This document shows, piece after piece, positions 9,238-40,158 of a stretch of 64,000 bases of DNA. Each line of letters begins with the position of its first letter. The stretch's first letter is position 1. Under the pieces are notes generated by a model, which was not told the origin of the DNA, did not search any database, and saw nothing but the letters and a program-made list of their open reading frames with translations. Origin of the DNA: a bacterium (GTDB taxonomy: Bacteria; Patescibacteriota; Dojkabacteria; JAKAPS01; JAJZLI01); assembly GCA_021816845.1 (NCBI GenBank), contig JAKAWT010000001.1, forward strand, positions 6,087 to 70,086. The letters run 5' to 3'. The position numbers and the translations under genes are program-made.

Positions 9238-9844
9238 ATGGGGTCTTAAATAAAATAATTATATTCCTTTTTATAGATCTCATCTTAGCATATTCTAAAT
9301 CAATTTTGATCCTTTTGTCAAAAGATATCTCTGAACGACCAGATATTTGCCATACACCTGTCAATCCTGGTTTGATACCAGTAATGATTGCAATGTCTTC
9401 TTCAACTTCTGGATTCATTGATATATAATACTCAAGTTCATCAAAATAATAGGCCCTAGGACCCACCAGTGACATATCCCCTTTTAATATATTGAAAAAT
9501 TGTGGGAATTCATCTATAGAATATTTCCTTATGAATTTACCGACCTTGGTTACTCTAGGATCATTCTTTAATTTATAACTATTTTTTTTATATTCCTTGT
9601 ATAATTTAGAATATTTGGGATCCTCTTTCAACATTGTATGTGCAGAAACGACCATAGATCTAAATTTATAAAATTTAAATGGCTGGTAATTCCGTCCAAC
9701 TCTTTCTGGCACATCCGCAAGTATTGGCCCTTTAGAGTCTATCATTATAAGTATCGCCGTAATTAGCATGATAGGAGAAAAGATTATTATCGCAAAGATA
9801 GAGACAATAATATCAATAATTCTTGTTACTATTTCATATACCAT
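9206..9844 (-). CDS. small monotopic phosphoglycosyl transferase (bacterial sugar transferase, PglC/WbaP C-terminal-domain type)
   Basis: N-terminal re-entrant helix and a DEFPQFFNILKGDMSLVGPRA signature. Confidence 0.8.
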   Translation of the reverse strand: MVYEIVTRIIDIIVSIFAIIIFSPIMLITAILIMIDSKGPILADVPERVGRNYQPFKFYKFRSMVVSAHTMLKEDPKYSKLYKEYKKNSYKLKNDPRVTKVGKFIRKYSIDEFPQFFNILKGDMSLVGPRAYYFDELEYYISMNPEVEEDIAIITGIKPGLTGVWQISGRSEISFDKRIKIDLEYAKMRSIKRNIIILFKTPFAVFSKRGAY

Positions 9845-10958
9845 TTTTTATTATATTATTAATTTTATTTTCTAAATTCTTTTTGAATATATCCTTAGAA
9901 AATCTCCTTGCATTATCTATACACTCTATAGGGTTAGATGGATTATCATAAATCTTCTTTAATGCTTTTTCAAGAGACCTAGATCCAAGAGATGTATCTT
10001 CATAGAAAAAATATCCTGTGACCCCCTCTTTTACACTTTCCATAGCCCCATCCTTAAATAATGCTACTACACCTTTCCCACAGGCCTGGGCTTCAATAGG
10101 TACAAGCCCAAAATCTTCTGCCCCAGGAAAGATAATAGCTTTAGACTGATTTATTATATCAATCATATCATCATCCCCAACATTGCCCAAAAATTCAATA
10201 TTAGATGATGATATCTTCTCTAGTTGATTTTTATATCCACCATCACCTATTATTTTTAATTTATAGTTAAGTTTTATACAAGTTTTTATTGCTATATCAA
10301 TATTTTTATACTTTTCTAGTCTTGATACAATTAGAAAGTAATCTCCATCAGTGAATTTATCATTTTTTAAAAATTTATTTGTATCAACATACGGATATAT
10401 AACGACACTATCCCTCCTATAAAATTTCTTTACTCTCCTTGATACTGCATTTGATATTGTAAAAAGATGATCTACCCTTTGGGCTGATGCAAAATCAATA
10501 ATCCTTAAATAATTATTGATAAAATATAAAGGTATTTTTTTTAGACCAGAGAAGGTATCTTGTCTAGAGTTAGGTAATCCCCATAAAAATCTAGGGGGTG
10601 TTAATATATAAGATATATGTAGAGTTGTATCAGATATAACAATGTTTTTTGCAAAACCAGCTGTAAGAGATAACACAATATCGTACTCATCAAAATTAAA
10701 TTCTTCAAATGCTAATGGATATAAAGGTGTCATAAACGGCCCAAAATATTTAAATAGTTTATTATACTTGCTCTCTATAATATTATATTCTCTAAACTTA
10801 TCTGGAAGTTTCTCTTTAATATACAAAGTTGTAAAAATTGGGGCATTTGGAAAGACTTCCATAATAGCTTCAAGATGCCTCTCTGCACCACCATATATTT
10901 TAAGAAAATCACATACTATAGCAATTTTAAAATCTGAATTCTTTACATTTTTTTCCAT
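9834..10958 (-). CDS. glycosyltransferase family 4
   Basis: GT-B fold. E-x7-E-like C-terminal motif region (FPGAEDFGLVPIEAQACGKGVVA). Confidence 0.75.
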   Translation of the reverse strand: MEKNVKNSDFKIAIVCDFLKIYGGAERHLEAIMEVFPNAPIFTTLYIKEKLPDKFREYNIIESKYNKLFKYFGPFMTPLYPLAFEEFNFDEYDIVLSLTAGFAKNIVISDTTLHISYILTPPRFLWGLPNSRQDTFSGLKKIPLYFINNYLRIIDFASAQRVDHLFTISNAVSRRVKKFYRRDSVVIYPYVDTNKFLKNDKFTDGDYFLIVSRLEKYKNIDIAIKTCIKLNYKLKIIGDGGYKNQLEKISSSNIEFLGNVGDDDMIDIINQSKAIIFPGAEDFGLVPIEAQACGKGVVALFKDGAMESVKEGVTGYFFYEDTSLGSRSLEKALKKIYDNPSNPIECIDNARRFSKDIFKKNLENKINNIIKNGI

Positions 10959-12064
10959 TTTGAGTTTACAAATTCTTCAATCTTTTCTCTAAATATTTCT
11001 CTGCTAAATCCCAAAGACACTCTTCTTAAATAATCTATATCAAATTCTATCTTCTCAAATCTTATAACTCCATCAATAACACTTTCTTTATCTTGTTTTT
11101 TAAAGAAGACACCTGTTTTTTGATCCTCTATGATATCTTTCACACCACCTTTGCCATATGCTATTACTCCTTTCCCACAAGCTAAAGCTTCAACAGGAAC
11201 TATTCCGAAATCTTCTTTTGATGGAAATAACAAACCCTTACATTTTAGTAATTGACTTTTTACCTCGTTATCATTTAAACCTTCATAAAATTTAATATTA
11301 TCTGTAAGACTTTCTTTAAGTCTATTTATATATGAGGATTCTCCATTACCTACAATATGTAACGGATATCCTAAAAATTTAAAAGCATCAATTAGAATAT
11401 CTACCCTTTTCCATGGAACAATTCTACCTATATACAGATAGTATCCTTGATCTTCTACTTTTCCATTTATGAATCTTTCAACATCAACTGGCGGATTGAT
11501 TATAACACTATCTTTATTATAGAATTTTTTTATTCTTTTTTGAGTAAATTCTGAATTTGCAATAAAAAAATCTGGTCTATAAGATGCCTGATAATCCCAA
11601 ATTCTCAAATATGAAACTAGTAATGGTAATATTTTCTTTTTTATACCTTTAATATTATACATCTTAATATATTCGTGATAGTCCCATATATAACGCGAAG
11701 GAGAATGCATATAGCATATATGCAACGTTCCTGGTTTGGTTATAATTCCATGAGCAAATCTAGTTGATGAAGAAATGACAACATCAAATTCATCAAAATT
11801 AAAACTTTCAAATGCTAAAGGGTATAAAAAGAAAAAACTTTTAGGATGTTTTTTTATAATTTTATATTTATTCAAAAAAGACATCCTTAAATTTCCAATT
11901 TTGTTAGGAATTTTTGATACTACAATATCTGATGATAAAGCAGTATACAAAGGAGGTTTTTCATACATATCAGATAGTTCTAATACCACTCTTTCAGCCC
12001 CTCCAAATTGGCATAGGTCATCATGAGCAAGAGCAATATTAATACCTACATCTTTATATTTCAT
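10943..12064 (-). CDS. glycosyltransferase family 4
   Basis: FPSKEDFGIVPVEALACGKGVIA motif; paralogous to the preceding GT4. Confidence 0.75.
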   Translation of the reverse strand: MKYKDVGINIALAHDDLCQFGGAERVVLELSDMYEKPPLYTALSSDIVVSKIPNKIGNLRMSFLNKYKIIKKHPKSFFFLYPLAFESFNFDEFDVVISSSTRFAHGIITKPGTLHICYMHSPSRYIWDYHEYIKMYNIKGIKKKILPLLVSYLRIWDYQASYRPDFFIANSEFTQKRIKKFYNKDSVIINPPVDVERFINGKVEDQGYYLYIGRIVPWKRVDILIDAFKFLGYPLHIVGNGESSYINRLKESLTDNIKFYEGLNDNEVKSQLLKCKGLLFPSKEDFGIVPVEALACGKGVIAYGKGGVKDIIEDQKTGVFFKKQDKESVIDGVIRFEKIEFDIDYLRRVSLGFSREIFREKIEEFVNSKWKKM

Positions 12065-12139
12065 ATTTGCATTATATCATCAGATATTTTTTTATGTATA
12101 TATTGACTTTACTAGAGATTTAGGAATAAATTATATAAT

Positions 12140-13126
12140 ATGAAAAATATATTAGTTCTTGGTGGTGCTGGATATATAGGGTCTCATACAGTATTAATGC
12201 TTGAAAGTCGAGGGTATAAGGCTATAGTTTTAGATAATTTATCTTCTGGACATAAACAATCCTTAAAAAATACTAATGCCACTATATATATTGATGAGAT
12301 ATCAAAAGAAAATCTAGAAAAGATAGCAGAAAAACACAAAATTGACGGAATTATATATTTTGCTGGATCTATAGCGGTTGGAGAATCTATGAGCAACCCT
12401 TCACTCTATCTACATAACAATCTTTTTAATGGGGTTACTATATTAGATTTTATGAAAGATAAGAACATTAATAAAATGGTTTTTTCTTCTTCAGCGGCTG
12501 TATATGGTATACCTTTAAAAGTCCCAATTTTTGAAGATGATAGAAAAAGTCCAATAAATGTTTATGGGTTTTCAAAAGCTGCATATGAAGATATTTTGAA
12601 GTTTTATGATCAAATATTTGGGATAAAATCAGTTTCATTAAGATATTTTAATGCAGCAGGTGCATCTTTAAAAAATAATATTGGGGAAGATCATAAAGAA
12701 GAAACACATCTTATTCCTCTAATTTTAAAAACAGCATTGGGTCAAAGAGAGTCAATAAAAATATATGGAGACACTTATAAAACATTGGATGGAACATGTA
12801 TTAGAGATTATATACATGTAGATGATTTAGCCCAAGCTCATATACTTGCATTAGAATATCTTCAAAATCATGGAGATAGTGATTATTTCAATATAGGCAA
12901 TGGATCTGGTCATTCTGTAAAAGAGATTATTGATTTATCAAAAAAGATAACAAATATTGACTTTAAGGTTGAGATAGAGGGTAAAAGAGAAGGTGATCCT
13001 GATATTTTAATTGCATCATCTTCAAAGATACAAAAAAAACTACATTGGAACTCACAATTTTCTATAGAAGATATAATAAAAAGCGCATGGACATGGCATA
13101 AAAATAACCCTAATGGTTTTGTATAA
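12140..13126 (+). CDS. galE: UDP-glucose 4-epimerase (NAD-dependent epimerase/dehydratase)
   Basis: N-terminal GGAGYIGSH Rossmann motif; catalytic YGFSKAAYE (YxxxK); 328 aa. Confidence 0.85.
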   Translation: MKNILVLGGAGYIGSHTVLMLESRGYKAIVLDNLSSGHKQSLKNTNATIYIDEISKENLEKIAEKHKIDGIIYFAGSIAVGESMSNPSLYLHNNLFNGVTILDFMKDKNINKMVFSSSAAVYGIPLKVPIFEDDRKSPINVYGFSKAAYEDILKFYDQIFGIKSVSLRYFNAAGASLKNNIGEDHKEETHLIPLILKTALGQRESIKIYGDTYKTLDGTCIRDYIHVDDLAQAHILALEYLQNHGDSDYFNIGNGSGHSVKEIIDLSKKITNIDFKVEIEGKREGDPDILIASSSKIQKKLHWNSQFSIEDIIKSAWTWHKNNPNGFV

Positions 13127-13185
13127 TGCTTTGTAATATATTGTTTTTGTAGTATACTCACTATTATTTTTAAACAGGGATTTAA

Positions 13186-14322
13186 ATGAAGTATATAGGT
13201 ATAGATTGTAGAGGTATAGAAGAAAAGCAAACAGGTATAGGAAACTATACAAAAAGCTTATTATCTGAAATCGTAAAGGAGGATAAAAATAATATATATT
13301 ATTTAATTTTTAATCAAAATAATATATTTTTAAAATATAAGGAACAATACACAAAATATAAAAATGTGAAAGTAGTTTCTATATTTTCTAAAAGACAAAA
13401 CCCTTTATCAGAAATAACCCTAGCTTTTGAACTTAGAGGTTTAAAAATTGACCTTTTTTGGACAGATATTTGGGGCAGTGTATACTATCATGGAGTAGAT
13501 TATGTTTTGTCACTACATGACATTATTGGTGTAAAAAGGAAAGATTTCGTAAGTTTGAAATATAGGATATATAATCTCTTCCATTTAAAATGGACAGTAA
13601 AACATGCATCTTTTGTATTTGTGCCTACCAAAGCTGTTAAGGATGATATAATAAAATATTTAAAAATAAGAAAGGGATCTAGATTACACAGATTTGGACC
13701 CAAGAGAATAAAAGTAACTGGAGAAGGTCTAACACGATTAAGATCATCGGTAGATCCAGAACTTGATAATGGAACATTTGAGAATATCTCTAAAAAATAT
13801 GGAATCAAAAATCCATATTTTATATATGTTGGTAACGATAGACCTCATAAGAATATAGAGGGATTGGTGAAAACATTTATAAGTTTTAAGAAAAAATATA
13901 AAAATGGTGCTCATTTAATACTTTGTGGAGTACCTAGAAATAATAAATACATTAAGAAAAGAAATAAAAGTTATATAGAGGCATTAGGGTATGTTTCTGA
14001 ATCTGAAAAATTTGCACTCTTAGAGCATGCTGTAGCATTTGTCACACTATCTTTTGATGAAGGATTCGGATTACCTCTCTTGGAAGCAACTGCATCGGGG
14101 TGTCCTGTTGTTTGTAGTGACATCCCTGTATTTAGAGAAATTATGGGGGATAGTGGAGCAATATTTGTGGATCCATATAGAGTCAGACCTGTTGCCAAAA
14201 GCTTAAATTTATTATACAGTGATAATATAAAAAGAGATGATCTTGTAAAAGAAGCTAAGAAAAATCTCAAGAGATTTAGCTGGACTAAAACGGCAAAAAG
14301 GATATTAAAATATTTAAGATAA
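13186..14322 (+). CDS. glycosyltransferase family 4
   Basis: C-terminal SFDEGFGLPLLEATASGCPVVCS motif typical of GT4. Confidence 0.7.
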   Translation: MKYIGIDCRGIEEKQTGIGNYTKSLLSEIVKEDKNNIYYLIFNQNNIFLKYKEQYTKYKNVKVVSIFSKRQNPLSEITLAFELRGLKIDLFWTDIWGSVYYHGVDYVLSLHDIIGVKRKDFVSLKYRIYNLFHLKWTVKHASFVFVPTKAVKDDIIKYLKIRKGSRLHRFGPKRIKVTGEGLTRLRSSVDPELDNGTFENISKKYGIKNPYFIYVGNDRPHKNIEGLVKTFISFKKKYKNGAHLILCGVPRNNKYIKKRNKSYIEALGYVSESEKFALLEHAVAFVTLSFDEGFGLPLLEATASGCPVVCSDIPVFREIMGDSGAIFVDPYRVRPVAKSLNLLYSDNIKRDDLVKEAKKNLKRFSWTKTAKRILKYLR

Positions 14323-17344: not shown

Positions 17345-19036
17345 ATGAGTATTCTTATTACATATACAACAATAATACTTGCCTCAGCACTTATAGGGGG
17401 ATATATTGCTTCAAGATTTAATCAATATATTATTGTTGGATACATAATAATAGGATTAATACTAGGTTCATTCATAATATCATCACATTCTTCCCAAGAC
17501 TATTTAAATAGTCTTGCATACATTGGAGTAGCTTTATTAGTATTTTCAAACGGGACAGAATTTTCACTTTCAAAAATTCTAAACTATAGAAAAATAATAA
17601 TCTCTGGAACTTTGTTGCAAACTCTCTTAACTTCATTAATTCTAACTGTAATATTTCTATTTTTTGGACTTGCTATAATTCCTGCATTTGTTATTGGATC
17701 AGCTTTTGCAATGAGTTCTACAATAATTGTTACTAAGGTTTTAAAAGATCTTGATAGAAATTATTCCCAAGAGGGAGAGATGACTTTTTCCTGGTTGATG
17801 GTACAAGATATACTAACTATCCCACTACTTGTTTTTTTGACTAATCTTAGTATATCCGGAGGAAACTTACTGATACCTATACTAATAGCAATCCTCAAAA
17901 GTATACTTATTTTCCTAGTACTGTATTATTTAGGTTTGATAATAATTCCTTATATTCTATCTAAAATAGCTCAGACAGAAATAAGAGAACTTATGATATT
18001 GGCTATTATATCAATACTATTTATAATCATAGTAATATCATCATATTTTGGAATATCACCTATTATCGCAGCTTTCATGGCAGGGTTAATAATATCTAAA
18101 GGAATGATGAACCATCAAATAGCATCTGAAATAAAACCTTTTAAAGACCTATTTTCAGTATTTTTCTTCGTCCTTATAGGTGCAGTTACACCTCTTTCTT
18201 TTATAATAGGCAATTTTTTCATCATAATACTAATAGCATCATTAATAATTCTCGTAAAAATAGTCACGACTTATACAGAACTAAGAATATATAAATTCCA
18301 TTCTATGACATCATTTATTGTTGCATTAAATATGTTTCAAGCAGGAGAATTTTCTTTTGTAATAGGGACAGTAGCCTATCAAGGACATATAATATCTGCA
18401 TTTTCATACCACCTTCTACTCGGAGTTACGATATTAACCATGATATTAACTCCTGTTATAATCAAAAGAAATACTAGTATATATGACCATTTAAGTCTAT
18501 TTATAGATAAACATTTACATTTTCTGCATCATAAACTTTTTGACCGCAAAATTAAAGATAGTATTAAGAAAGAGAAACATAAAGAAATTATTATTGCAGG
18601 ATATGGGAGAGTAGGAAGGCAAATAGTAGATATTTTGAAGAAAAATAATGTAGAATGCAGTGTCATAGATTTTAACAAGGGCATAATGGAAGAACATAAT
18701 AGTCATAGCGTGAATTTTATATATGGTAATGCAGATAGTATGGATATATTAAAAGTTGCAGACATTATACATGCAAAAATAATGATAATAACAACCCCAG
18801 ATATAGAAATTAATTATAAAATAGCTCAAATATCAAAAAGTGTAAATCCAGCTATTAAAATTATAGCTCGTTCACACCTACCTCATCACAAAGATATTTT
18901 ACTGCAATCTGGAGTAGAATACGTTATAGAACCTGAAAAAGAAACCGCAATAACAATAGCAGATTTACTTTTAAGATATCTTGGTAAGGGTAAATCAGAT
19001 CTACGATTATCATTTGAGGGTACAAATACATTATGA
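17345..19036 (+). CDS. CPA2-family cation:proton antiporter (Kef-type) with C-terminal RCK/TrkA-N domain
   Basis: About 12 TM helices, then a Rossmann motif IIIAGYGRVGRQIVDIL. Confidence 0.7.
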   Translation: MSILITYTTIILASALIGGYIASRFNQYIIVGYIIIGLILGSFIISSHSSQDYLNSLAYIGVALLVFSNGTEFSLSKILNYRKIIISGTLLQTLLTSLILTVIFLFFGLAIIPAFVIGSAFAMSSTIIVTKVLKDLDRNYSQEGEMTFSWLMVQDILTIPLLVFLTNLSISGGNLLIPILIAILKSILIFLVLYYLGLIIIPYILSKIAQTEIRELMILAIISILFIIIVISSYFGISPIIAAFMAGLIISKGMMNHQIASEIKPFKDLFSVFFFVLIGAVTPLSFIIGNFFIIILIASLIILVKIVTTYTELRIYKFHSMTSFIVALNMFQAGEFSFVIGTVAYQGHIISAFSYHLLLGVTILTMILTPVIIKRNTSIYDHLSLFIDKHLHFLHHKLFDRKIKDSIKKEKHKEIIIAGYGRVGRQIVDILKKNNVECSVIDFNKGIMEEHNSHSVNFIYGNADSMDILKVADIIHAKIMIITTPDIEINYKIAQISKSVNPAIKIIARSHLPHHKDILLQSGVEYVIEPEKETAITIADLLLRYLGKGKSDLRLSFEGTNTL

Positions 19037-21291
19037 AGGTAAATGAAATAATTAATAATAAAGTTATACTTAAAATTGCAGTTCCTAAGAACAATGATAA
19101 AACACCTTTAGCAGCAGAACAAATGTTTGCTTCATTACATGGAATTATAGGTGATAATAAAAAATCAGCAGAACACATAGGATTTGAGATAGTATCATCT
19201 AAAACTGGCATTTTATTCTTTGCTATAACTACAAGAAATTATAAAGATTTTGTTATGGGACAGATATATGCACAATATCCTCACGCAGAGATTGATGAAG
19301 TAAATGATTATACAGAATCTTTTAAACATTTTAAATATTTTGCAATATCAGAAATATCATTAAAGAAAAACTACATTCTACCCATAAAAACTTTTGCTAA
19401 TTTTGACGTTGATCCTTTGTCAGCATTAACTAATGCTATGATTAAGAATAATTCTGATAATCTTTCTTCAATACAAATATTATTAAGACCTATTAATGGG
19501 GGTTGGCATAATAAGGCAAAAAAATATATCAATAGCAGTCGAGGAGCAGATATTGGATCTAGTATAACTACGTCATTATTAAAAATTATCACATCAGAAA
19601 TAGTATCAAACAAGAATAAAACTACACAAGTATCAAAGCCTACACTATCAAGTTTAGAGCAAGGCGCCTTATCAGAAATAGAGAAGAAAATAACAAAAGT
19701 AGGATATGAGGTTTTAATAAGGATTATATCTCTATCAAACAATAGTTATGAGCCTGAAAATACCATATCTCATATACAGGCAGCATTCAATCAATATAAC
19801 TACCCTCATTTAAATGCCTTTGATGTAAAGAAAACTAAAGATAAAGGACATATAATATATCAACAATTTATAAATAGATATATGGGTAAAAAAATATCAA
19901 CAGTACTAAATACAGAAGAAGTAGCATCTTTATACCATTTACCAGACTTATCAGTAGAGACACCGTCTATAATATACTCCAAAGCAAAAAAAGCAGAACC
20001 ACCAATAAATCTACCAACAGAAAATGTTAACTATATTGGAATAACATCTTTTAGAGGCATGAGTAATAGATTTGGCATAAAGACAGAGGACCGAAGACGA
20101 CATATGTATATATTAGGGAAAACAGGCACGGGAAAATCTACGATGATAAAGAATATGGTGATTCAAGATATTATTAATGGTAAAGGCGTTGGTATATTTG
20201 ACCCTCATGGAGATCTAGTAGAAGATATCTTAAATTTTATACCTCCTCAAAGGATAAATGATGTTGTAATAATTGATCCATCTGATACTGAGTACCCTGT
20301 ATCTATAAACCTTTTAGAATTAAAAGATTTATCTTTAAAAGATCTTGTTGCTGATAATATAGTATCCGTTTTTAAAAAACATTTTGATTCTTGGGGACCT
20401 AGATTAGAATATCTTTTACACAACTGTATCCTTACTCTAATCCAAGTAGATAATACATCTCTACTTGGTATACAAAGGATTCTCGTAGATAAAATATATA
20501 GGGAAAAAGTATTAAAACAAATAGATGACCCTATACTATTAAGGTTCTGGAATGAGGAGTATACAGCAATGGAAAAAAATCCTAGACTTGCTTCTGAGGC
20601 AATAGCACCTATACAAAACAAAGTTGGTAGATTTCTATCTAGTCAAACAATGAGGAATATTGTAGGTCAGGTAACATCAACAATAGATCTTGAAGAGATA
20701 ATGAATAATAATAAAATTCTCATTGTAAATTTATCTCAAGGTAAAATAGGTGAAGAACAGGCTTCATTATTTGGAGGAATGCTAATAACAAGACTACAAT
20801 CTGCAGCTATGAGTAGAATAAAAATAAAAGATGAAGAAAAAAGAAATGATTTTTACCTTTATGTTGATGAATTTCAAGTTTTTGCAACTAATGCTTTTGC
20901 AAAAATATTATCTGAAGCTAGAAAGTTTAGACTAAATCTAATTCTAGCACACCAATATATAGCTCAACTAGATATTGATATCAAAGATGCTATATTCGGT
21001 AATATAGGTACTACAATATGTTTTGTTGTAGGTCCTCAAGATGCAGGAGAACTTGAGAAAGAATTTATGCCAGTATTTTCACAAGAAGATCTAATATCTC
21101 TAGAAAAACATCATTTTTATACAAAATTAATGATTGATGGTATGATATCTACCCCATTTAGTGCAATATCTGAAGATCTTAGATATACAAAAAATGATAA
21201 CAAAGATAAGGTTATAAAAGTTTCCAGAGAGAGATATGCAAGAAGCAAAAGTGATATTGAGGATAAGATATCAAGATGGACAAAAAATTAA
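19033..21291 (+). CDS. soluble P-loop ATPase of the TraD/VirD4/TrwB (type IV coupling protein / FtsK-HerA) superfamily
   Basis: Walker A ILGKTGTGKST; Walker B FYLYVDEFQVF; C-terminal ARKFRLNLILAHQYIAQL resembles the T4SS-DNA_transf/TraM-recognition region; no N-terminal TM; ATGA overlap with the antiporter gene. Confidence 0.55.
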   Translation: MKVNEIINNKVILKIAVPKNNDKTPLAAEQMFASLHGIIGDNKKSAEHIGFEIVSSKTGILFFAITTRNYKDFVMGQIYAQYPHAEIDEVNDYTESFKHFKYFAISEISLKKNYILPIKTFANFDVDPLSALTNAMIKNNSDNLSSIQILLRPINGGWHNKAKKYINSSRGADIGSSITTSLLKIITSEIVSNKNKTTQVSKPTLSSLEQGALSEIEKKITKVGYEVLIRIISLSNNSYEPENTISHIQAAFNQYNYPHLNAFDVKKTKDKGHIIYQQFINRYMGKKISTVLNTEEVASLYHLPDLSVETPSIIYSKAKKAEPPINLPTENVNYIGITSFRGMSNRFGIKTEDRRRHMYILGKTGTGKSTMIKNMVIQDIINGKGVGIFDPHGDLVEDILNFIPPQRINDVVIIDPSDTEYPVSINLLELKDLSLKDLVADNIVSVFKKHFDSWGPRLEYLLHNCILTLIQVDNTSLLGIQRILVDKIYREKVLKQIDDPILLRFWNEEYTAMEKNPRLASEAIAPIQNKVGRFLSSQTMRNIVGQVTSTIDLEEIMNNNKILIVNLSQGKIGEEQASLFGGMLITRLQSAAMSRIKIKDEEKRNDFYLYVDEFQVFATNAFAKILSEARKFRLNLILAHQYIAQLDIDIKDAIFGNIGTTICFVVGPQDAGELEKEFMPVFSQEDLISLEKHHFYTKLMIDGMISTPFSAISEDLRYTKNDNKDKVIKVSRERYARSKSDIEDKISRWTKN

Positions 21292-24188: not shown

Positions 24189-24578
24189 ATGAATAAAAAA
24201 ATAGGTTATACTAAATCAACAGATAAACCAGTAGACTATATAAAAAGGGTACTCCAGGAAGAATTCAGGAAGGAAGGGTTTGTTCCTATATTTGATTTAG
24301 ATATGAAAAATACAGCCAATGAGAAGTTATCTGAGAATTTTACTCAATACTACATATTAGGCTATTACAATATTTCATATGCTATTAGTGCTATAGAAAG
24401 GAATCCTAACGCAGGATTACTCATTCCTACAGTTCTGGTTTTATATGAGATTAATGGTATAAGGTACTTATCGGGAACTGAACCAACAAATATAGATAGT
24501 TTATCTGATGAAATGGAAAGCTTTATAACACAGATTGATAGCATTATAAAATCAGTTATTGACAATGCTATTGATTAG
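24189..24578 (+). CDS. DUF302-family protein
   Basis: 129 aa; the GLLIPTVLVLYEINGIRYLS block resembles the DUF302 core. Confidence 0.45.
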   Translation: MNKKIGYTKSTDKPVDYIKRVLQEEFRKEGFVPIFDLDMKNTANEKLSENFTQYYILGYYNISYAISAIERNPNAGLLIPTVLVLYEINGIRYLSGTEPTNIDSLSDEMESFITQIDSIIKSVIDNAID

Positions 24579-24579
24579 A

Positions 24580-25704
24580 TTAGTCCCATCTGAAGTATTT
24601 AAGATTGATAGCAAAGAATATTAGAAACCAGACAAATAGTCCTACTAAATCTCCTTTGATACTAAATAGTGAATAACCATTCAGATATACTCCACGTAAA
24701 GCATTAACAAAAAATGTCAGAGGTAAGTAAGCAGCTATTTGTGCTAGCCAGGAAGGTAAGCTTGTAGTAGCAAAAAATACCCCTGAGAGGAAAAACATAG
24801 GTAGGGTTATAATATTTGCTATTGGCATTGCAGTATTAACTGAATTTGATAGAGAAGATAATAGTAATGCTAGAGTTATAAACATAAGGCTACCTAGTAT
24901 AATGACAATTCCAAGATTTATATAACTGCCTTTTGGTACAATATTATAAACACCTGCAACAACTGCAAATAGGACTATAGCTTGGAATATTGCGACTACA
25001 AGCCTTGATAATGTTAAACTAGCTAGAAAATTAGACTTTGTTAAAGGTGTTAGAAATAATCTTCGTAGAATCTGTAGCTCCCTATAATTAATAATTATAG
25101 TAATAACACCAAAAATAATACCATTCATTATACCCAAAGCCACGATACCGGGAGTTAAAAACGTTATATAACTATAACCTCCTTTTGAGATCACATTTTT
25201 CTGAGAGAAAGTAAATATTTGATTTTTCAAACCTTCTTGTTGTAGTGCACTATATTTAATTTGATCTATCAAAAGCAATACATATGAATAATTTTGATCA
25301 TTTTTATTTGTATAAAAAACAACATTATACCGAGGTGTAACTATAGGTAATAATCTAGTATTGTAAGGTTCTACTGGGGGTTTATTTTGAAACTTCACAG
25401 CTTGAAGATCAATCACAAGATCTACATTTCCTTTATTAAGATTTGAAGTTGCTTTGGCAAGATTATTTAAATTTGTGGTTTTTATAGATCCTGCTTTTTT
25501 AAATATTTTATCATACAAAGCTGCAATTGTAGCTGTTTTATTATTAGATATAATATCAATTTTTAGAGTAGGTGCTTTTTGGGAGTTGAAAAGACCAAAA
25601 ACAAGAATAAAAACCAAGGGAAAAAATAATGTAAAAAATAGATTGGTCCTATTTCTAAAGGTCATTTTTAAAAATGCAATTGTGAGATAATAGGTTCTTT
25701 TCAT
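24580..25704 (-). CDS. ABC-2 type transporter permease
   Basis: N-terminal TM, a large extracytoplasmic loop, then 5 C-terminal TM helices; adjacent to the ABC ATPase. Confidence 0.65.
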   Translation of the reverse strand: MKRTYYLTIAFLKMTFRNRTNLFFTLFFPLVFILVFGLFNSQKAPTLKIDIISNNKTATIAALYDKIFKKAGSIKTTNLNNLAKATSNLNKGNVDLVIDLQAVKFQNKPPVEPYNTRLLPIVTPRYNVVFYTNKNDQNYSYVLLLIDQIKYSALQQEGLKNQIFTFSQKNVISKGGYSYITFLTPGIVALGIMNGIIFGVITIIINYRELQILRRLFLTPLTKSNFLASLTLSRLVVAIFQAIVLFAVVAGVYNIVPKGSYINLGIVIILGSLMFITLALLLSSLSNSVNTAMPIANIITLPMFFLSGVFFATTSLPSWLAQIAAYLPLTFFVNALRGVYLNGYSLFSIKGDLVGLFVWFLIFFAINLKYFRWD

Positions 25705-25707
25705 AAT

Positions 25708-26469
25708 TTAATCTCTTAATTTATTACCGGTAAGATCTATAAATACATCTTCTAAGTTAGCTCTTGTATCTTGAACTTTTTTTTCAAACCCTCTATCAAG
25801 GAGACTCTTAATAAGATTGCTTGGTGTATCATTAACAATGATTTTACCGTTATCCATAATGGCGACTCTATCTGATAGATATTGTGCCTCATCCATAAAA
25901 TGAGTAGTTAATAATATTGTCTTACCTGCAACCTTCAAAGATTTAACAATATCCCATAAGTGCCTTCGTGCTTGAGGATCTAATCCATTAGTAGGTTCAT
26001 CCAAAAATAGAATTTTAGGGTTATTTATGAGTGCCAAAGCTATAACAAATCTCTGTTTTTGTCCTCCAGAAATATCTTTATATAATACTTTTGCTTTCTC
26101 ACTTAAAGATACTTTTTCTAAGAATTCTCCAGTGTTTACATCTATACCAAAAAGGTGTCCAAATAATTTTAATATATCTGTTATCGATAAATCATCAAAA
26201 AAATTATTTGCCTGAAGAGTCACACCTATTATTTTCTTTATATCACTGCTATGTTTTGCTATATCCATTCCATCAATGACGACACTACCTTTATCCATAC
26301 TAAGAAGACCTTCTATCATCTCTACTGTAGTCGTTTTACCAGCACCATTAGGACCAAGAAGGCTAAATATTTCACCATCATTTACACTAAACGATACTCC
26401 TCTTACAGCTTTTATTTTTCCGTCCTTAAAAGTTTTCTCTAAATTATCTACTTTTATAATGGGATTCAT
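25708..26469 (-). CDS. ABC transporter ATP-binding protein
   Basis: Walker A GPNGAGKTT; signature ISGGQKQR; Walker B ILFLDEPT. Confidence 0.85.
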   Translation of the reverse strand: MNPIIKVDNLEKTFKDGKIKAVRGVSFSVNDGEIFSLLGPNGAGKTTTVEMIEGLLSMDKGSVVIDGMDIAKHSSDIKKIIGVTLQANNFFDDLSITDILKLFGHLFGIDVNTGEFLEKVSLSEKAKVLYKDISGGQKQRFVIALALINNPKILFLDEPTNGLDPQARRHLWDIVKSLKVAGKTILLTTHFMDEAQYLSDRVAIMDNGKIIVNDTPSNLIKSLLDRGFEKKVQDTRANLEDVFIDLTGNKLRD

Positions 26470-26543
26470 CTCAAATTATGATAACAAAAACATATTTACT
26501 ATTCAACGGTTATGTTATAATCAATTTTAAGGATTAGTATCCA

Positions 26544-27152
26544 ATGGAAAGCAATGCTCAAATAAGAAACCTACTCATAGCAACATTTATACTCATAATA
26601 GTTATTATAATACTTACGTTGTCTCCCCCTAAAAATAAGGGCGAATTGGTTGGAAAGATCACGAGGTCAGGATTAAGTGCAAATAATAGTCAAGGTAATT
26701 CAGATGGAGTACATAAATATAAGGAATACAATGGAGTATTAAATCTGAAAACTAAATTTTCTTTTCAATATCCGTCTACATGGAAAATAGTGTCCTTAGA
26801 AAAACCTTTTTATAAAAATACAACATATTCAATATCATTAGAAGATCAAAATATATTAACTAGGCTGACAGTGTATCCAAGTTGCGTTGCTATACCAACC
26901 GTAACTTCCTTAAAACCATATTACGTGGTAAATTCAAAAAAAATAAAAACTGGAGGAATAGAGTATCTTCTATATGAAAATGATACAATTGTAGCAATAT
27001 TTTATTATAACAATAATATTAGTATACTATTAAATTACCATAAAATAGTGACTAATTATTTTGGGTCTTCTATAGATAAAAATACTGAGAGTGAGTTTAA
27101 TATATTAGTGTATTCTGTAAAAATAATAGGTGGAGAATACAAGTGCAGCTAG
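26544..27152 (+). CDS. membrane-anchored extracytoplasmic protein, unknown function
   Basis: One N-terminal TM helix, then about 170 soluble residues; no recognisable motif. Confidence 0.4.
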   Translation: MESNAQIRNLLIATFILIIVIIILTLSPPKNKGELVGKITRSGLSANNSQGNSDGVHKYKEYNGVLNLKTKFSFQYPSTWKIVSLEKPFYKNTTYSISLEDQNILTRLTVYPSCVAIPTVTSLKPYYVVNSKKIKTGGIEYLLYENDTIVAIFYYNNNISILLNYHKIVTNYFGSSIDKNTESEFNILVYSVKIIGGEYKCS

Positions 27153-27621: not shown

Positions 27622-27644
27622 AAGAATATATTAACAAATGACGA

Positions 27645-27692
27645 GAGGAAGATACATATTACACAGATTGTGTAAAAATGTAGAGCTTCCTC
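27645..27692 (-). terminator. stem-loop (GAGGAAG...CTTCCTC with nested ACACA-GAT-TGTGT) downstream of the 27730..28101 gene
   Basis: 7-bp outer stem, a nested inner hairpin, and a moderately U-rich 3' flank on the minus strand. Confidence 0.3.
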
Positions 27693-27729
27693 TAATCACA
27701 CGCCCATAAATGGGAGAAGTTACTATTAA

Positions 27730-28101
27730 CTAGCCATCCTGGCGAATACCTCCATTACGTTGGTCAAACTTATGTATTTGTGTTTCCACAAATGCCATTA
27801 GGACTACTACTAACGCAAAAAGTATTTCTCTTGGAGTAAACAAAAACCAAACTTGCAGGAAGATTCCAAATGAGAATGGTAATGCATACTGAATGAGAAA
27901 CCTTTTGTTTCCACCTTTCATAAATACCGTAAAAACAAGGATTAGAATCATAAAAACCAAAGAGTCATTTACTCCCAAAACAAATGCTTTAGCAATATGT
28001 TCTGTTATATAAAAGACAATCCCAGGGATCAGTGTTCCAAAAAGTGCTATAGATAGTACAATAAGAATAGAACGAATATTGCCAAGACGACGCGAGCTCA
28101 T
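27730..28101 (-). CDS. small integral membrane protein (4 TM), unknown function
   Basis: 123 aa, hydrophobic, SD AAAGGGG 5-6 nt upstream; lies downstream of the hammerhead motif; GC-elevated. Confidence 0.45.
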   Translation of the reverse strand: MSSRRLGNIRSILIVLSIALFGTLIPGIVFYITEHIAKAFVLGVNDSLVFMILILVFTVFMKGGNKRFLIQYALPFSFGIFLQVWFLFTPREILFALVVVLMAFVETQIHKFDQRNGGIRQDG

Positions 28102-28234
28102 AAAAACCCCTTTCTTATGACAACCTAAGACCTAGAGAATATCCAGGTGTTCGGCATGTCTTGTAAACGTGCTTTTGGATTTTATCATAAAAAATACTAT
28201 AAGGCAATTTATGTAAATCACTTTTAGGCTATAA

Positions 28235-28287
28235 TTCTCTTTCGTCATTTTTGACTCATCAGATCAAGTACACACTTGATGAGAGAA
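28235..28287 (-). ncRNA. hammerhead ribozyme motif, type III topology (open stem III)
   Basis: Minus-strand RNA 5'-UUCUCUC|AUCAAGU-GUGU-ACUUGAU-CUGAUGA-GUCA-AAAA-UGAC-GAA-AGAGAA-3'. Stem I 7 bp; conserved CUGAUGA core; stem II 4 bp with G10.1-C11.1; G12-A13-A14; stem III 6 bp AGAGAA/UUCUCU; cleavage triplet CUC with predicted cut after + position 28281. Confidence 0.6.
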
Positions 28288-28288
28288 G

Positions 28289-28336
28289 GACAAACCTTAA
28301 GTTTTTAATTTTTTAGATTAAAAATTAAGGTCTGTC
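28289..28336 (-). terminator. long imperfect hairpin (about 17 bp) just after the 28354..29475 stop and just 5' of the hammerhead motif
   Basis: GACAAACCTTAAGTTTTTAAT / ATTAAAAATTAAGGTCTGTC inverted repeat with one mismatch and one G.U pair. Confidence 0.4.
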
Positions 28337-28353
28337 CAATCCCGGCTTAGTTC

Positions 28354-29475
28354 TCAGAAATTTCTCTGTATGATAGTTTCTCCTTTCTTTCCTAGAGGAT
28401 TAAATCCAGTATCAGTATTTGGATTGTATCCAGGTAGCAGCTGGTTGAATGGGATATCCCAAATATATATGCCTTTAACAAAAGACAGACTTCTGAGTGA
28501 AGTAAATGCAGCATCATAATAGTCTGCTTGAGCAGAAGAACTATATATACCAGTGCTACTTGATACCCATGGTTTGCTATAAGATCCCTCCTGTGAAGCT
28601 GCTCCAATTTCTGTTACCACTATAGGCATATTATACTGTTTGTATGCCTGCTCAAGTGCTGACAAATAGGGGCTCCAAGAAGATATCATATCTGTAAGGC
28701 TCGGACCTTGTACTGGCACAAATAGATCTGTACTTATGAAATTGAGTTTATTCCAAAATTGTACATTACTAGATACCAATTGTGGCCACCAATTACTAGA
28801 ATAGGTTATCTCCCCACTAAAAACACTTCTAACCTTTTGTATAAGAGTATCCCAATACCCTGTATACTGCTCCATGGAATTTAGTTCAGCACCTACTGTA
28901 AGTATGCTCCCTTGAGCACTTTGTAGTAACATCGCATAACGAACAATCATATTTGTGTATGATTGAAACCAACTTGAGATATCCTGAGGTTTTATTATAC
29001 CTCTCCAGCCATCACCTCCTCCCTTGAGATTCTTTTGATCCAATATTGGCCTTAGATTAGTACTCAGACCAAAACTGTGTGCTGTTTCCAGTATATCCAT
29101 GAGCTCCAGACTAGTAGGAGTGGATTCACCTGTATACACGCTTGATGCATACAAGTTATCCATGTAGAAAGGGAAATTGATAGATATACTGTTTACTCCA
29201 ATGCTCTTAAGATGAGTAAACAGACTACTAGAAAGTCCTTTTATATCAGGATAGTTCCCGTATAGAAGAATATCAATGCCCTTTTGATAGGATACCTGTA
29301 TTGGTAGTTCTGGTGTCTTGGGACTTGTTACTGGTTTTGGTGTTGTAGTTTTACCTTTTCCCTGGCTTGTTATTTTAATTGTATTTGTAGTTGTTGCACA
29401 TCCTGAAAGAATTGATGCAAAAAGGACAAATACTAACAACCCTCCTATCTTAGATCCTTTTTTGTATGACATCAA
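28354..29475 (-). CDS. lipoprotein glycoside hydrolase (TIM-barrel, clan GH-A-like; GH5/GH113-like)
   Basis: Signal peptide plus lipobox LSGC; Thr/Pro-rich linker; candidate catalytic residues GAELNSME and VVTEIGA. Confidence 0.5.
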   Translation of the reverse strand: MMSYKKGSKIGGLLVFVLFASILSGCATTTNTIKITSQGKGKTTTPKPVTSPKTPELPIQVSYQKGIDILLYGNYPDIKGLSSSLFTHLKSIGVNSISINFPFYMDNLYASSVYTGESTPTSLELMDILETAHSFGLSTNLRPILDQKNLKGGGDGWRGIIKPQDISSWFQSYTNMIVRYAMLLQSAQGSILTVGAELNSMEQYTGYWDTLIQKVRSVFSGEITYSSNWWPQLVSSNVQFWNKLNFISTDLFVPVQGPSLTDMISSWSPYLSALEQAYKQYNMPIVVTEIGAASQEGSYSKPWVSSSTGIYSSSAQADYYDAAFTSLRSLSFVKGIYIWDIPFNQLLPGYNPNTDTGFNPLGKKGETIIQRNF

Positions 29476-30859
29476 ACCCTTCCTTACGCAGTAGGAACTC
29501 TATAAGACCTAGAAGAGACGTTATTGATTCCACTACTGGAATCAGGAATACTCCTGGTATAGCTACTGCCATATGAAGATACTTCTTTAAAGTACCTCCT
29601 TTCTCTGATACACCTAGATTGATTTTAACACCTTCCATATAGCTCCATATTTGAAAAGCCATATTGAAACTCCAAAGTAAAACAATGCCTTTGAAGACAG
29701 GTGCAGTATCTTGACCAATCAGTAACCCTATAAGGATTACAACCCAAACGTTCTGTGCAAAACCAACGAGCCATATAAAGACTGCATAGGATAAAACCTT
29801 TTTGTCTCTAAGATGGATGGATTTATCTGAAATGAGATGTATCAGTCCAGAAGACCACCTCCGACGTTGCTTTATTAGGTCTTTCACACTTGATGGAGAT
29901 GATCCATAAGTTGCACTATTTAAGAATCCAGATTTACCAGGATATTTCTTTGCAAAGAAAAGTGCAAAATAAGCATCCTCTACTTTAACTTTTTTTCCGA
30001 AATCCCAACCTATTGTTTCTTCTATATCACTTCTTAGGAGTAGATGTTCCCCGTGTAATCCCATCCTGGGAGTTCCACCACCTGTGAAAAAATAGAATTT
30101 TGATAGATCATCAATCGGTCTAATTGAATCAGCGAATCTACTTATTGCACTATTTGAACGCTCATACGGAAAGGTCAGTACTCCTTGTGCTAGATAAAAT
30201 TCATTGCCTTTTTTGGAAATGAATTCTGCTATTGATGATATTGTGTCAGACCTTACAGAAGTATCATCATCAAGATGATACACCCAAGTGTTTGCACAGT
30301 TTTCTCCATCAATAGCTCTAACCATCATTGCATATTGATTAGCTCTCGCTTTGTACTTAGTACCATTAGGAGTAGAGTAATCATGAGGAACTACAAGAAT
30401 CCTTACCAAATTACTAGATCCATAGATCTTCTGTAGTATTGAGATACCTTCCGAGCCTTCGTCAACGACAACGTCTATTCTGAAATTTACCATATTGAAT
30501 GGAGCAAATTCCAGAACTGAATCTATCACCCTTTTTAAAGCTGGAATTACATTTGATCTTGCGACAGACGGGACTATAAATATTACTTGATTATTTATAG
30601 TTTCACAGAACCTAGATGGAACTACTTTATACCTCTTTAGGGCTACTATTCCTAAGAATGATATAACCGCTAGTGGAACATTCAAACTCCAAATTAAGGT
30701 TACATACCAATTAAGGGCCTGATATCTAGAACCACCAGTGATATACCAAGAGATTGCACCAAGTATTGTAAAAACTAATAGAAACCTCCAAATATTGACA
30801 TTGAATATACTACGCTTCCTACGACCAGATTCCCCAATATATATTGGAACTGTAGACAA
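29450..30859 (-). CDS. processive family-2 glycosyltransferase (PgaC/IcaA/NodC/cellulose synthase-like polysaccharide synthase)
   Basis: 2 N-terminal and about 4 C-terminal TM helices; central GT-A domain with DDD motifs and a Q-R-R-R-W (QxxRW) motif (IKQRRRWSSG). Confidence 0.7.
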   Translation of the reverse strand: MSTVPIYIGESGRRKRSIFNVNIWRFLLVFTILGAISWYITGGSRYQALNWYVTLIWSLNVPLAVISFLGIVALKRYKVVPSRFCETINNQVIFIVPSVARSNVIPALKRVIDSVLEFAPFNMVNFRIDVVVDEGSEGISILQKIYGSSNLVRILVVPHDYSTPNGTKYKARANQYAMMVRAIDGENCANTWVYHLDDDTSVRSDTISSIAEFISKKGNEFYLAQGVLTFPYERSNSAISRFADSIRPIDDLSKFYFFTGGGTPRMGLHGEHLLLRSDIEETIGWDFGKKVKVEDAYFALFFAKKYPGKSGFLNSATYGSSPSSVKDLIKQRRRWSSGLIHLISDKSIHLRDKKVLSYAVFIWLVGFAQNVWVVILIGLLIGQDTAPVFKGIVLLWSFNMAFQIWSYMEGVKINLGVSEKGGTLKKYLHMAVAIPGVFLIPVVESITSLLGLIEFLLRKEGFDVIQKRI

Positions 30860-31198
30860 CTGTGACTTATCCTCCTTTTAGTTGTAAAAGAACTTGCCGG
30901 ATTATACGTGTACCAATACTACTAACATTACTGTCATTTATATATGGTATACACAAAGTGCATTGTACTAAAAAATAAATTTATAATCAAATGTATAGTG
31001 TCTACATAAGTTGAGATACTAACCTTTTTTTTAAAACATTAGATTTTTTATACAATAATTAAATCCTATAGTGTAATAGGGAATAGGGTATGATTTTAAA
31101 AGCAGGGAGGGTTTATCAACTACATAAATTATACAAAAGAACAATATAAAATAACTGAGTATAATATTATTAGTGGGGGATAGGGTAGGGAGCCATAA

Positions 31199-40024: not shown

Positions 40025-40098
40025 TTGACCTTGGCGGGATTCGAACCCGCGATCTTTAGGATGAGAACCTAATATCCTAGACCACTAGACGACAAGGC
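40025..40098 (-). tRNA. tRNA-Glu (anticodon CUC)
   Basis: Minus-strand GGCCUUG acceptor stem (G2.U71), D-arm UCGUCUAGUGGUCUAGGAU, anticodon stem UUAGG/CCUAA with loop UUCUCAU, T-arm GCGGGUUCGAAUCCCGC, discriminator A, no encoded CCA. Confidence 0.8.
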
Positions 40099-40158
40099 CA
40101 TATTGAAGATTATATATTAAGAATAATGTTTTGTGAAATCAATTGGTATTCAATATTC

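Follow-up and report, generated by a model that had tools for sequence, protein, structure and literature searches.

A horizontally acquired glycosyltransferase–GH113 hydrolase cassette that ends in a hairpin and a hammerhead motif in a Dojkabacteria genome

The bacterial glycan synthase systems that most resemble the locus described here are BcsA-BcsZ, PssC-PssZ of Listeria and the clostridial CcsA-CcsZ. In each of these, a membrane glycosyltransferase of family GT2, with the motifs D, DxD, (T)ED and QxxRW and a fold like that of BcsA and hyaluronan synthase, is coupled to a co-oriented gene for a hydrolase that acts outside the cytoplasm and belongs to clan GH-A or a similar group; BcsZ, PssZ and CcsZ trim or release the glycan in these known synthase-dependent systems. 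We found a comparable arrangement at positions 27730-30859 of a 64,000-nt stretch of a Dojkabacteria genome (Patescibacteria; GenBank assembly GCA_021816845.1, contig JAKAWT010000001.1, positions 6,087 to 70,086), which as a whole we refer to as the window. Here, three genes on the minus strand encode, in order, a GT2 membrane glycosyltransferase, a lipoprotein hydrolase of family GH113 and a small membrane protein, and a type III hammerhead ribozyme motif lies between the second and the third.

The locus differs from the BcsZ, PssZ and CcsZ systems in that it has no PilZ/cyclic di-GMP module, BcsB-like partner, deacetylase or epimerase, its hydrolase belongs to GH113 rather than to GH8 or GH5, only two of its genes are conserved, and its synthase-like protein matches no curated NCBIfam family at E <= 0.05, with neither a PgaC/IcaA nor a BcsA model among the hits. 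A published parallel is a predicted operon of C. difficile in which a mannosyltransferase-like BcsA/B pair is encoded together with a GH113 protein, WecB and a CE4-like deacetylase, and for which a mannose-type polymer was argued (PMC7710045). Whereas that operon, itself predicted only, includes BcsB, an epimerase and a deacetylase, the GT2 family studied here is far smaller and none of those partners accompanies it. Beyond this report, we found no description of bacterial GT2-GH113 or mannan-synthase systems in the literature.

An earlier note on this DNA, made from the sequence alone, had likened the three genes to poly-N-acetylglucosamine (PNAG) modules (pgaABCD/icaADBC) or Bcs-type modules. 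A synthase paired with a polymer-trimming hydrolase proved to be the right kind of analogy, but neither named system fits. PNAG synthesis was rejected on the grounds that the GT2 protein matches no PgaC/IcaA model, none of the three open reading frames (ORFs) is a CE4 deacetylase, and there is no conserved partner like PgaD or IcaD; a PNAG-type hydrolase was likewise ruled out, the enzyme being GH113 and not GH153. For the Bcs cellulose system, the GT2 protein ends at residue 469 with no PilZ domain, no ORF resembles BcsB, and a GH113 enzyme stands in place of the GH8 enzyme BcsZ.

The explanation that we favor overall, with confidence a little better than even, is that the locus is an acquired, self-contained expression cassette for a glycan synthase and its hydrolase that has a hairpin-hammerhead end. 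According to this proposal, the GT2 enzyme would polymerize a beta-1,4-linked glycan, of which a mannan type is our best guess, from nucleotide sugar on the cytoplasmic face and pass it across the membrane. The GH113 protein, a retaining hydrolase held as a lipoprotein on a Thr/Pro linker at the outer face, would then trim or release the glycan made by GT2. The two genes would be translationally coupled, and a promoter, together with a conserved 5′ block acting as leader or operator, would come with the cassette.

The GT2 glycosyltransferase

The first gene (29450-30859, minus strand) encodes 469 aa from a TTG start and matches PF13632 (3e-17, residues 192-381). The protein is laid out as two N-terminal membrane helices, a cytosolic GT-A domain, and C-terminal membrane and interface helices followed by a C-terminal FDVIQK. 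We located the motifs DDD197-199, FFTG257, E294-D295 and QRRRW331-335, and an alignment of 34 homologs showed H195, D197-D199, E294-D295, Q331, R332, R334 and W335 to be invariant. The enzyme thus carries the sequence hallmarks of the processive class (a DxD GT-A domain with TED and QxxRW), as had been proposed from its QRRRW motif. The ratio of nonsynonymous to synonymous divergence (dN/dS) was 0.09-0.12.

When the alignment profile was compared with solved structures, it matched BcsA only (E = 3e-5 over 90 residues), with V-E-D paired with TED and QRRRW with QRGRW. An AlphaFold2 model of the protein (predicted local distance difference test score, pLDDT, 91.6) gave as its best Foldseek matches BcsA of E. 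coli and Rhodobacter, the hyaluronan synthases of Chlorella virus and Xenopus, plant CesA and yeast Chs1. Also conserved is a C-terminal F-x-V-I-x-K motif, which we take to resemble the gating-loop motif FxVTxK of BcsA. From these features we infer that the enzyme is processive, and we go no further than this because QxxRW-type motifs also occur in single-addition, non-processive lipid glycosyltransferases such as glucosylceramide synthase and Egghead. Several other observations count against processivity: the template modeling scores (TM-scores) of all fold matches were ~0.5, the non-polymerizing mannosyltransferase PcManGT was among these matches, and hydropathy analysis placed only about three hydrophobic segments past the catalytic domain. 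The automatic names given to the GT2 homologs by the Joint Genome Institute (JGI) are beta-1,4-mannosyltransferase or egghead. By family (PF13632) and by such annotation alone, the enzyme can be likened to Drosophila Egghead and plant CSLA; Egghead is non-processive and CSLA is processive, so this resemblance leaves the mechanism of GT2 unsettled.

The alternative that survives best, which we consider unlikely but by no means negligible, is that GT2 is a non-processive enzyme of the Egghead or PcManGT kind, adding one beta-linked sugar onto a lipid or lipid-linked acceptor to give a surface glycolipid or precursor, and that GH113 remodels or recycles this glycoconjugate rather than trimming a free polymer. 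Ranked by E-value, the top fold matches are polymer synthases, which argues against this, even though PcManGT had the highest target-normalized TM-score (0.65) and the scarcity of hydrophobic segments beyond the GT-A domain, like the JGI names, would suit a glycolipid enzyme. Many homologs have no GH113, including those of Thermoplasmatota and Acidimicrobiia, and a close homolog (locus L153) adjoins lipid glycosyltransferases resembling monogalactosyldiacylglycerol (MGDG) synthase, as might be expected of an enzyme acting on lipids. Polymer synthesis, in turn, is better matched by a hydrolase of an endo-acting family outside the membrane, sometimes accompanied by GH26, and by the conservation of FFTG, ED, QRRRW and the C-terminal F-x-V-I-x-K with its putative likeness to the BcsA gating loop.

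Hammerhead motif, hairpin and leader block

The hammerhead motif, which was read directly from the sequence, occupies 28235-28287 on the minus strand, between the GH113 gene and the small gene, where the earlier note had also placed it. It reads UUCUC-U-C / AUCAAGU-GUGU-ACUUGAU-CUGAUGA-GUCA-AAAA-UGAC-GAA-A-GAGAA, in which the slash marks the predicted cleavage site, after C28281 and between 28281 and 28280. Stem III comprises 5 bp plus A15.1-U16.1, stem I comprises 7 bp with the loop GUGU, and stem II comprises 4 bp with the loop AAAA; stems I and II are capped and stem III is open. Every core position is canonical, namely CUGAUGA (28262-28256), GAA (28243-28241), the pair A28240-U28282, and C28281.

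A strict structural scan of both strands of 1.66 Mb of fetched loci detected such motifs only in the window clade, in the lineage of loci L003, L004 and L010, and in L019, a locus of Saccharibacteria. Each of these loci had one hammerhead, on the coding strand and 3′ of GH113, and the GT2 proteins of these lineages are 43–65% identical to that of the window (43% for L019). Dinucleotide shuffles gave an expectation of ~0.6 chance matches per 1.74 Mb. The core was identical in all five aligned sequences, compensatory changes were present in 9 of 17 pairs, and 96.5% of cells were paired; none of 500 shuffles did as well. The L019 hammerhead came from the structure-based scan and so biases the pairing count, while its position behind GH113 constitutes independent evidence. 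The loops, UGUGU and AAAA, were fixed across the five sequences, which suggests a loop-loop contact.

Immediately upstream, a long stable hairpin of ~21 bp (28288-28337, minus strand), seen in the minimum free energy fold, abuts the 5′ strand of stem III and is followed by no U-tract; the 132-nt folded region that contains it had a z of -4.6. Equivalent hairpins stand 5′ of the hammerhead in L004 and L019, ending 0–5 nt before stem III and again with no U-tract. In L019 the next gene is convergent, so that the ribozyme there lies at the 3′ end of the operon. We propose that transcription would run through the hairpin into the hammerhead, which would cleave itself in vivo after C28281. The synthase-hydrolase mRNA would then stop 7 nt beyond the hairpin, in a cyclic phosphate, whatever follows at the insertion site, and the downstream RNA would be freed with a 5′-OH. 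A cassette inserted at arbitrary sites would in this way carry its transcript end with it, independent of the surrounding sequence.

Two results weigh against giving the ribozyme such a role: most GT2-GH113 loci have no counterpart of it, and the Rfam hammerhead model RF00008 scored the motif at 16.9 bits, far below its gathering threshold of 48.5. At gathering thresholds, Rfam likewise detected no hammerhead family in L004 or L019. Our own covariance model (R1) scored its training members at 70–86 bits; applied to the remainder of the window, to 80 SpoU loci and to 62 other GT2 loci, it found no further hammerhead. A generic hammerhead pattern matched three IMG/VR viral contigs. In its canonical core, three stems, intergenic position, transcribed orientation and location beside non-conserved ORFs, the motif agrees with known prokaryotic hammerheads (PMC3088659, PMC6155905). 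Unlike these, it is present as a single copy, is unclustered, lies outside any prophage and is below threshold in Rfam, and it is fixed 3′ of one cellular gene pair in diverged lineages, always after a strong hairpin. We found no literature report of hammerheads in Patescibacteria.

It is also conceivable that the hammerhead acts for the variable genes on its 3′ side, as part of a separate, prophage-like unit of ribozyme and small orphan ORF that would hitch-hike on the cassette or be a remnant of the vehicle that carried it. Non-conserved genes do follow the ribozyme, a 123-aa orphan in the window and 285-aa and 118-aa proteins with no Pfam matches in L004, and prokaryotic hammerheads are known to flank small non-conserved ORFs and have been linked to phages (PMC6155905, PMC3088659). 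We nevertheless judge this distinctly unlikely, given that no co-directional gene lies 3′ of the L019 ribozyme, each locus has one ribozyme only, no phage genes were found near the cassette at the loci examined, and GT2 has no relatives in IMG/VR viral contigs. Moreover, the constant feature is the hairpin upstream of the cleavage site, and the small gene has a promoter-like site of its own (TTGCCT-17-TAAAAT, with TG before the -10) at 28179-28207 on the minus strand, 3′ of the hammerhead and 5′ of the small gene. This site, found by a consensus scan and with an inferred function, is kept in loci L006, L008 and L009.

The small gene itself (27730-28101, minus strand) had been described as encoding a 123-aa protein with four transmembrane helices. 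A real membrane-protein gene is present, with 3–4 helices predicted from hydropathy; what failed was its suggested part as a conserved accessory, the protein having no homolog outside its clade. Among 5.8 billion proteins it formed 4 clusters only, all >=85% identical, a profile search of 1.84 billion representatives revealed no homolog outside its own clade, and the protein was encoded in no other GT2-GH113 locus examined, where the downstream genes are unrelated or convergent. The dN/dS of 0.11-0.18, together with a GC content at third codon positions (GC3) of 0.28, like that of the island, shows the ORF to be a real gene under purifying selection. The AlphaFold2 model had four helices and was poor (pLDDT 52). 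The protein is therefore best described as a lineage-specific orphan and not as a conserved accessory of the PgaD/IcaD type, and in the proposed mechanism it would be a lineage-specific addition with its own promoter-like site. As a side observation, the synonymous divergence (dS) of this gene relative to L006, L008 and L009 was 0.39, about half the 0.5-0.9 of its neighbors, and its 5′ untranslated region was almost invariant; this hints at additional selection acting on the RNA, although in so short a gene it may also be sampling noise.

At the other end of the cassette, a consensus scan found a promoter-like site, TTGATT-17-TACAAT, 5′ of GT2 (30962-30990, minus strand), whose function is again putative. 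The site is kept in L006, L008 and L009, and in the different context of L153 it reads TTGACT-17-TACAAT. Next to it lies a conserved 5′ block of ~60 nt (30894-30955, minus strand), composed of an imperfect hairpin (about 30905-30955) and then a nearly invariant AUAAUCCGG(C/U). The site and the block together precede the GT2 gene not only in the window clade but also in L153 (5870-5996) and L004 (7887-7980), and both are thus kept in all three chromosomal contexts although synonymous sites are nearly saturated. Five pairs of the consensus leader hairpin showed compensatory changes, and Rfam offered no family for the block at either gathering or permissive thresholds. We regard the block as a possible leader RNA or promoter-operator. 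A hairpin sequestering the ribosome-binding site in the leader was considered and rejected, the pairing not being kept in relatives.

The biological role of prokaryotic hammerheads has been described as open (PMC6155905). A fixed, non-phage position behind one gene pair in three diverged lineages makes a role in 3′-end formation or insulation testable and, if the proposal is true, would give a bacterial hammerhead a concrete cellular role outside phages.

The GH113 hydrolase and its pairing with GT2

The second gene (28354-29472 from its ATG, or to 29475 for the whole ORF, minus strand; 372 and 373 aa, respectively) begins within the GT2 gene and shares its last ~23 nt. Its product matches PF22612 (GH113) at 1.8e-45, with a score of 156 bits against a cut-off of 27 and with profile positions 21-289 of 289 covered. 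In the 373-aa ORF, residues 23-26 form a lipobox, L-S-G-C, and a linker rich in Thr and Pro is also present. These features bear out the lipoprotein glycoside hydrolase with a Thr/Pro linker that had been proposed, and GH113 belongs to clan GH-A. Among solved structures, the protein matches the beta-mannanases AaManA of Alicyclobacillus acidocaldarius (4cd6, 3civ; 2e-23), 5ylh and 7dv7 (to 1e-16); VGAE196 lines up with the acid/base residue of AaManA, E151, and VTE288IG with its nucleophile, E231, and both catalytic Glu residues are invariant in six GT2-linked GH113 homologs. The dN/dS of the gene was 0.14-0.16. Thus, the profile and the aligned glutamates agree with those of GH113 beta-mannanases and mannosidases. 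In contrast to enzymes of the AaManA type, to which its identity is low, the protein has a membrane tether and a linker and is coupled to a synthase instead of to catabolic genes, and mannan hydrolysis is putative.

We compared GT2 relatives at 53 loci (one genome per species) from Patescibacteria, Chloroflexota, many Actinomycetota, one metagenome-assembled genome of Bacillota, and Thermoplasmatota archaea, in which GH113 was detected by six-frame profile searches. A GH113-like ORF directly adjoined GT2 in 17 of the 53 (from Patescibacteria, Chloroflexota and Actinomycetota), while all other neighbors differed, and the metagenomic locus L147 also had the pair. The conserved core consequently consists of two genes, GT2 and GH113, not three. 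The GH113 partners that we examined at other loci all retained the two catalytic Glu residues, along with a linker and either a signal anchor or a lipobox, and therefore all should sit on the outer face of the membrane. Within ~1.9 kb of the pair, a member of the second mannanase family, GH26, was found in L011, L014, L029 and L045, with two copies in L011.

By analogy with these families, our best guess is that the pair represents a synthase and the surface hydrolase that acts on its product, a glycan of beta-1,4-mannan type. This is weakened by the fact that 36 of the 53 loci have no GH113 within 8 kb of GT2, that the mannan-type sugar is deduced from the known substrates of GH113 and GH26 and from automatic names, and that the window contains no genes of the GDP-mannose pathway. 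If the two enzymes were unrelated neighbors, GH113 would act in nutrition, as a beta-mannanase or mannosidase for scavenging mannan of the host or the environment, and GT2 would belong to another pathway. All characterized GH113 enzymes are indeed catabolic beta-mannanases or mannosidases (PDB names; PMC7710045), yet in most of at least 18 loci from three phyla the two genes are co-oriented and overlap or lie almost end to end, no sugar transporter or mannose-catabolic genes stand alongside, and the hydrolase is tethered to the membrane and not freely secreted. We therefore regard a chance association as improbable.

The preferred reading, a coupled synthase and hydrolase, makes the GT2-GH113 pair a compact, widely distributed and uncharacterized candidate for surface-glycan synthesis. 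A horizontally acquired surface polymer in ultra-small, host-dependent Patescibacteria could bear on host attachment and biofilm life. We advance a broader claim as a tentative possibility: that the hairpin and hammerhead form a portable transcript-end module, which travels with a mobile cassette and its equally portable promoter and leader and protects a defined mRNA 3′ end wherever the cassette inserts, and also that the gene pair is an undescribed minimal synthase-dependent system, possibly for beta-mannan, present across Patescibacteria, Chloroflexota and Actinomycetota.

Two variants of the GT2 neighborhood were also seen. In Acidimicrobiaceae (L022, L042, L043 and L048), GH113 is replaced by a 476-aa lipoprotein encoded ~70–90 bp 3′ of GT2, which has a clan GH-A-like WEVGNE motif, no Pfam match and a faint likeness to GH51 arabinofuranosidases. 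A branch of the GT2 family that is 48–50% identical to the window's protein (L149, 5001-9823; L154, 2478-6362) has no GH113, and GT2 there adjoins a second, Glyco_transf_21-like GT2 and conserved proteins of unknown function.

Insertion, empty site and mobility

The segment 27730-30859 has a GC content of 36.7%, compared with 29.4% in the rest of the window, and tops all 3.13-kb intervals (mean 29.8%, sd 2.0). The earlier note was correct on this elevation and set the flanks too low, at 25–28% instead of the 28–31% measured here. GC3 was 0.27-0.28 in all three island genes, against 0.19 +/- 0.026 in the 60 other ORFs, placing them at ranks 1-3 among 63; the excess is thus found at third codon positions, and amino-acid composition alone is therefore no sufficient explanation. 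The cassette also exceeds its flanks in GC3 in L006, L009 and L153.

Relatives with an empty site (L143-L146), defined by a SecA 66–68% identical to the window's and found through SecA homologs and contig look-ups, have the gene order TsaE-TsaB-TsaD-GreA-SecA-SpoU-...-SerS-HPF. In these, secA directly adjoins SpoU across a spacer of ~150 bp that is homologous to the secA-proximal 150 nt of the window. This native spacer (31052-31198, minus strand), with C-rich tracts and a CCCTATT..TATAGG hairpin, aligns with the whole spacer of L143 and L145, sharing the blocks CTCCCCTAC, an invariant ATTATACTCAGTT, and CCCCTATTATA..CTATAGGATT, and we therefore place the start of the insertion near 31050. Its lower end lies near 27640, just ahead of the SpoU start, giving a length of ~3.4 kb (about 27640-31050). 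That boundary is marked by an inverted repeat with an 8-9-bp stem, UAGAGGAAG...CUUCCUCU (27639-27698, minus strand), which is located 3′ of the small gene and is a likely terminator; it is kept in L006 and not at the empty sites. A SpoU/TrmL protein scan of JGI metagenome contigs gave best matches of only 55% identity, with no shared synteny.

The G-tracts noted upstream of the island are indeed rare, with 7 tracts of G3+ in 30860-31198 against 1.16 +/- 1.06 per 339 bp, a number reached by 0.35% of windows of this size. They fall, however, in the part that is homologous to the spacer of island-less relatives, and therefore are no property of the island. The C-rich tracts and the CCCTATT..TATAGG hairpin after the secA stop are conserved in those relatives, and this element (31052-31198) may be a secA terminator, a Rho-dependent site or a regulatory element of SpoU.

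Close relatives (GT2 82–89% and SecA ~91% identical) have all three genes in the corresponding position, between secA and the SpoU-type methylase. For the window compared with L006 or L008, the dS of GT2 and GH113 (0.7-0.9) is about equal to that of SecA, and the insertion is therefore older than the split of these lineages; within the window clade, the island is inherited vertically. An identical GT2 protein is also present in the Patescibacteria metagenome-assembled genome GCA_027425395.1. The synteny check suggested by the earlier note thus gave a divided answer: the nearest relatives have the island at the same place, so that it is old within the clade, while the site is empty in the next more distant relatives and the cassette stands elsewhere in two lineages.

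These results confirm that the segment is an insertion and was horizontally acquired, as had been suspected, since relatives have an empty site, GC3 is raised and the distribution across phyla is patchy. Some observations count against this reading: no integrase or transposase was found among the ORFs, no tRNA lies at the island (the sole tRNA of the window is at 40025-40100), searches around the island for direct or inverted repeats yielded nothing beyond short matches expected by chance, and the GC3 of the L004 cassette is the same as that of its flanks. An AT-rich 9-10-mer, TTAAT(T/A)TATT, is present at both junctions, but it is ambiguous and too simple to be called a target duplication. 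That no transfer took place, and that the GC excess of native genes arose from amino-acid composition or codon selection, has a very small chance of being true: GC1 and GC2 can deviate in genes for membrane or secreted proteins (GC2 is 0.43 in GH113) and the closest relatives share the island at the same site, but the excess sits at third codon positions in all three genes, the relatives with SecA 66–68% identical have an empty site with a homologous spacer, and the cassette stands at other sites in two more lineages.

In related genomes, the cassette is found at three chromosomal sites: between secA and SpoU, after MurB in L153, and between a MarR gene and an FAD-binding gene in L003/L004. 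L153 and L003/L004 are related low-GC Patescibacteria; in the former (GT2 77% identical) the cassette lies 3′ of GT4, MGDG-synthase-like and MurB genes, and in the latter GT2 is 65% identical. In L019 (7826-11231), the GT2-GH113-hammerhead cassette, together with a convergent gene for a 163-aa secreted protein, has 59–61% GC, against 47% in the two genes beyond it, and represents an independent transfer from a high-GC donor. We concluded that the unit is a self-contained mobile cassette, made up of the promoter and leader block, the GT2 synthase-like gene, the GH113 gene and the hairpin-hammerhead unit, to which the orphan was added in the window clade. The cassette illustrates how genomes as reduced as these acquire functions, namely in complete units that bring along the elements controlling them.

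Three other regions of the window were also noted. Adjoining the island, between SpoU and serS, lies an apparent second lineage-specific insertion (24189-27152), with GC not raised, which encodes a 202-aa protein, an ABC-2 transporter (ATPase and permease) and a DUF302 protein; in the empty-site relatives, SpoU is followed by serS in L145 and by Ddl and then serS in L143. A 752-aa DUF87/TrwB-type (VirD4/HerA-like) ATPase is encoded at 19033-21291, between the genes for a Na+/H+ exchanger and PspC, which adjoin each other in L143 and L145, and may be another insertion. Finally, a separate glycan cluster of native composition at 7291-14322, unrelated to the island, encodes a DUF4012 protein, a Bac_transf initiating sugar transferase, three GT4 glycosyltransferases and an NAD-dependent epimerase/dehydratase.

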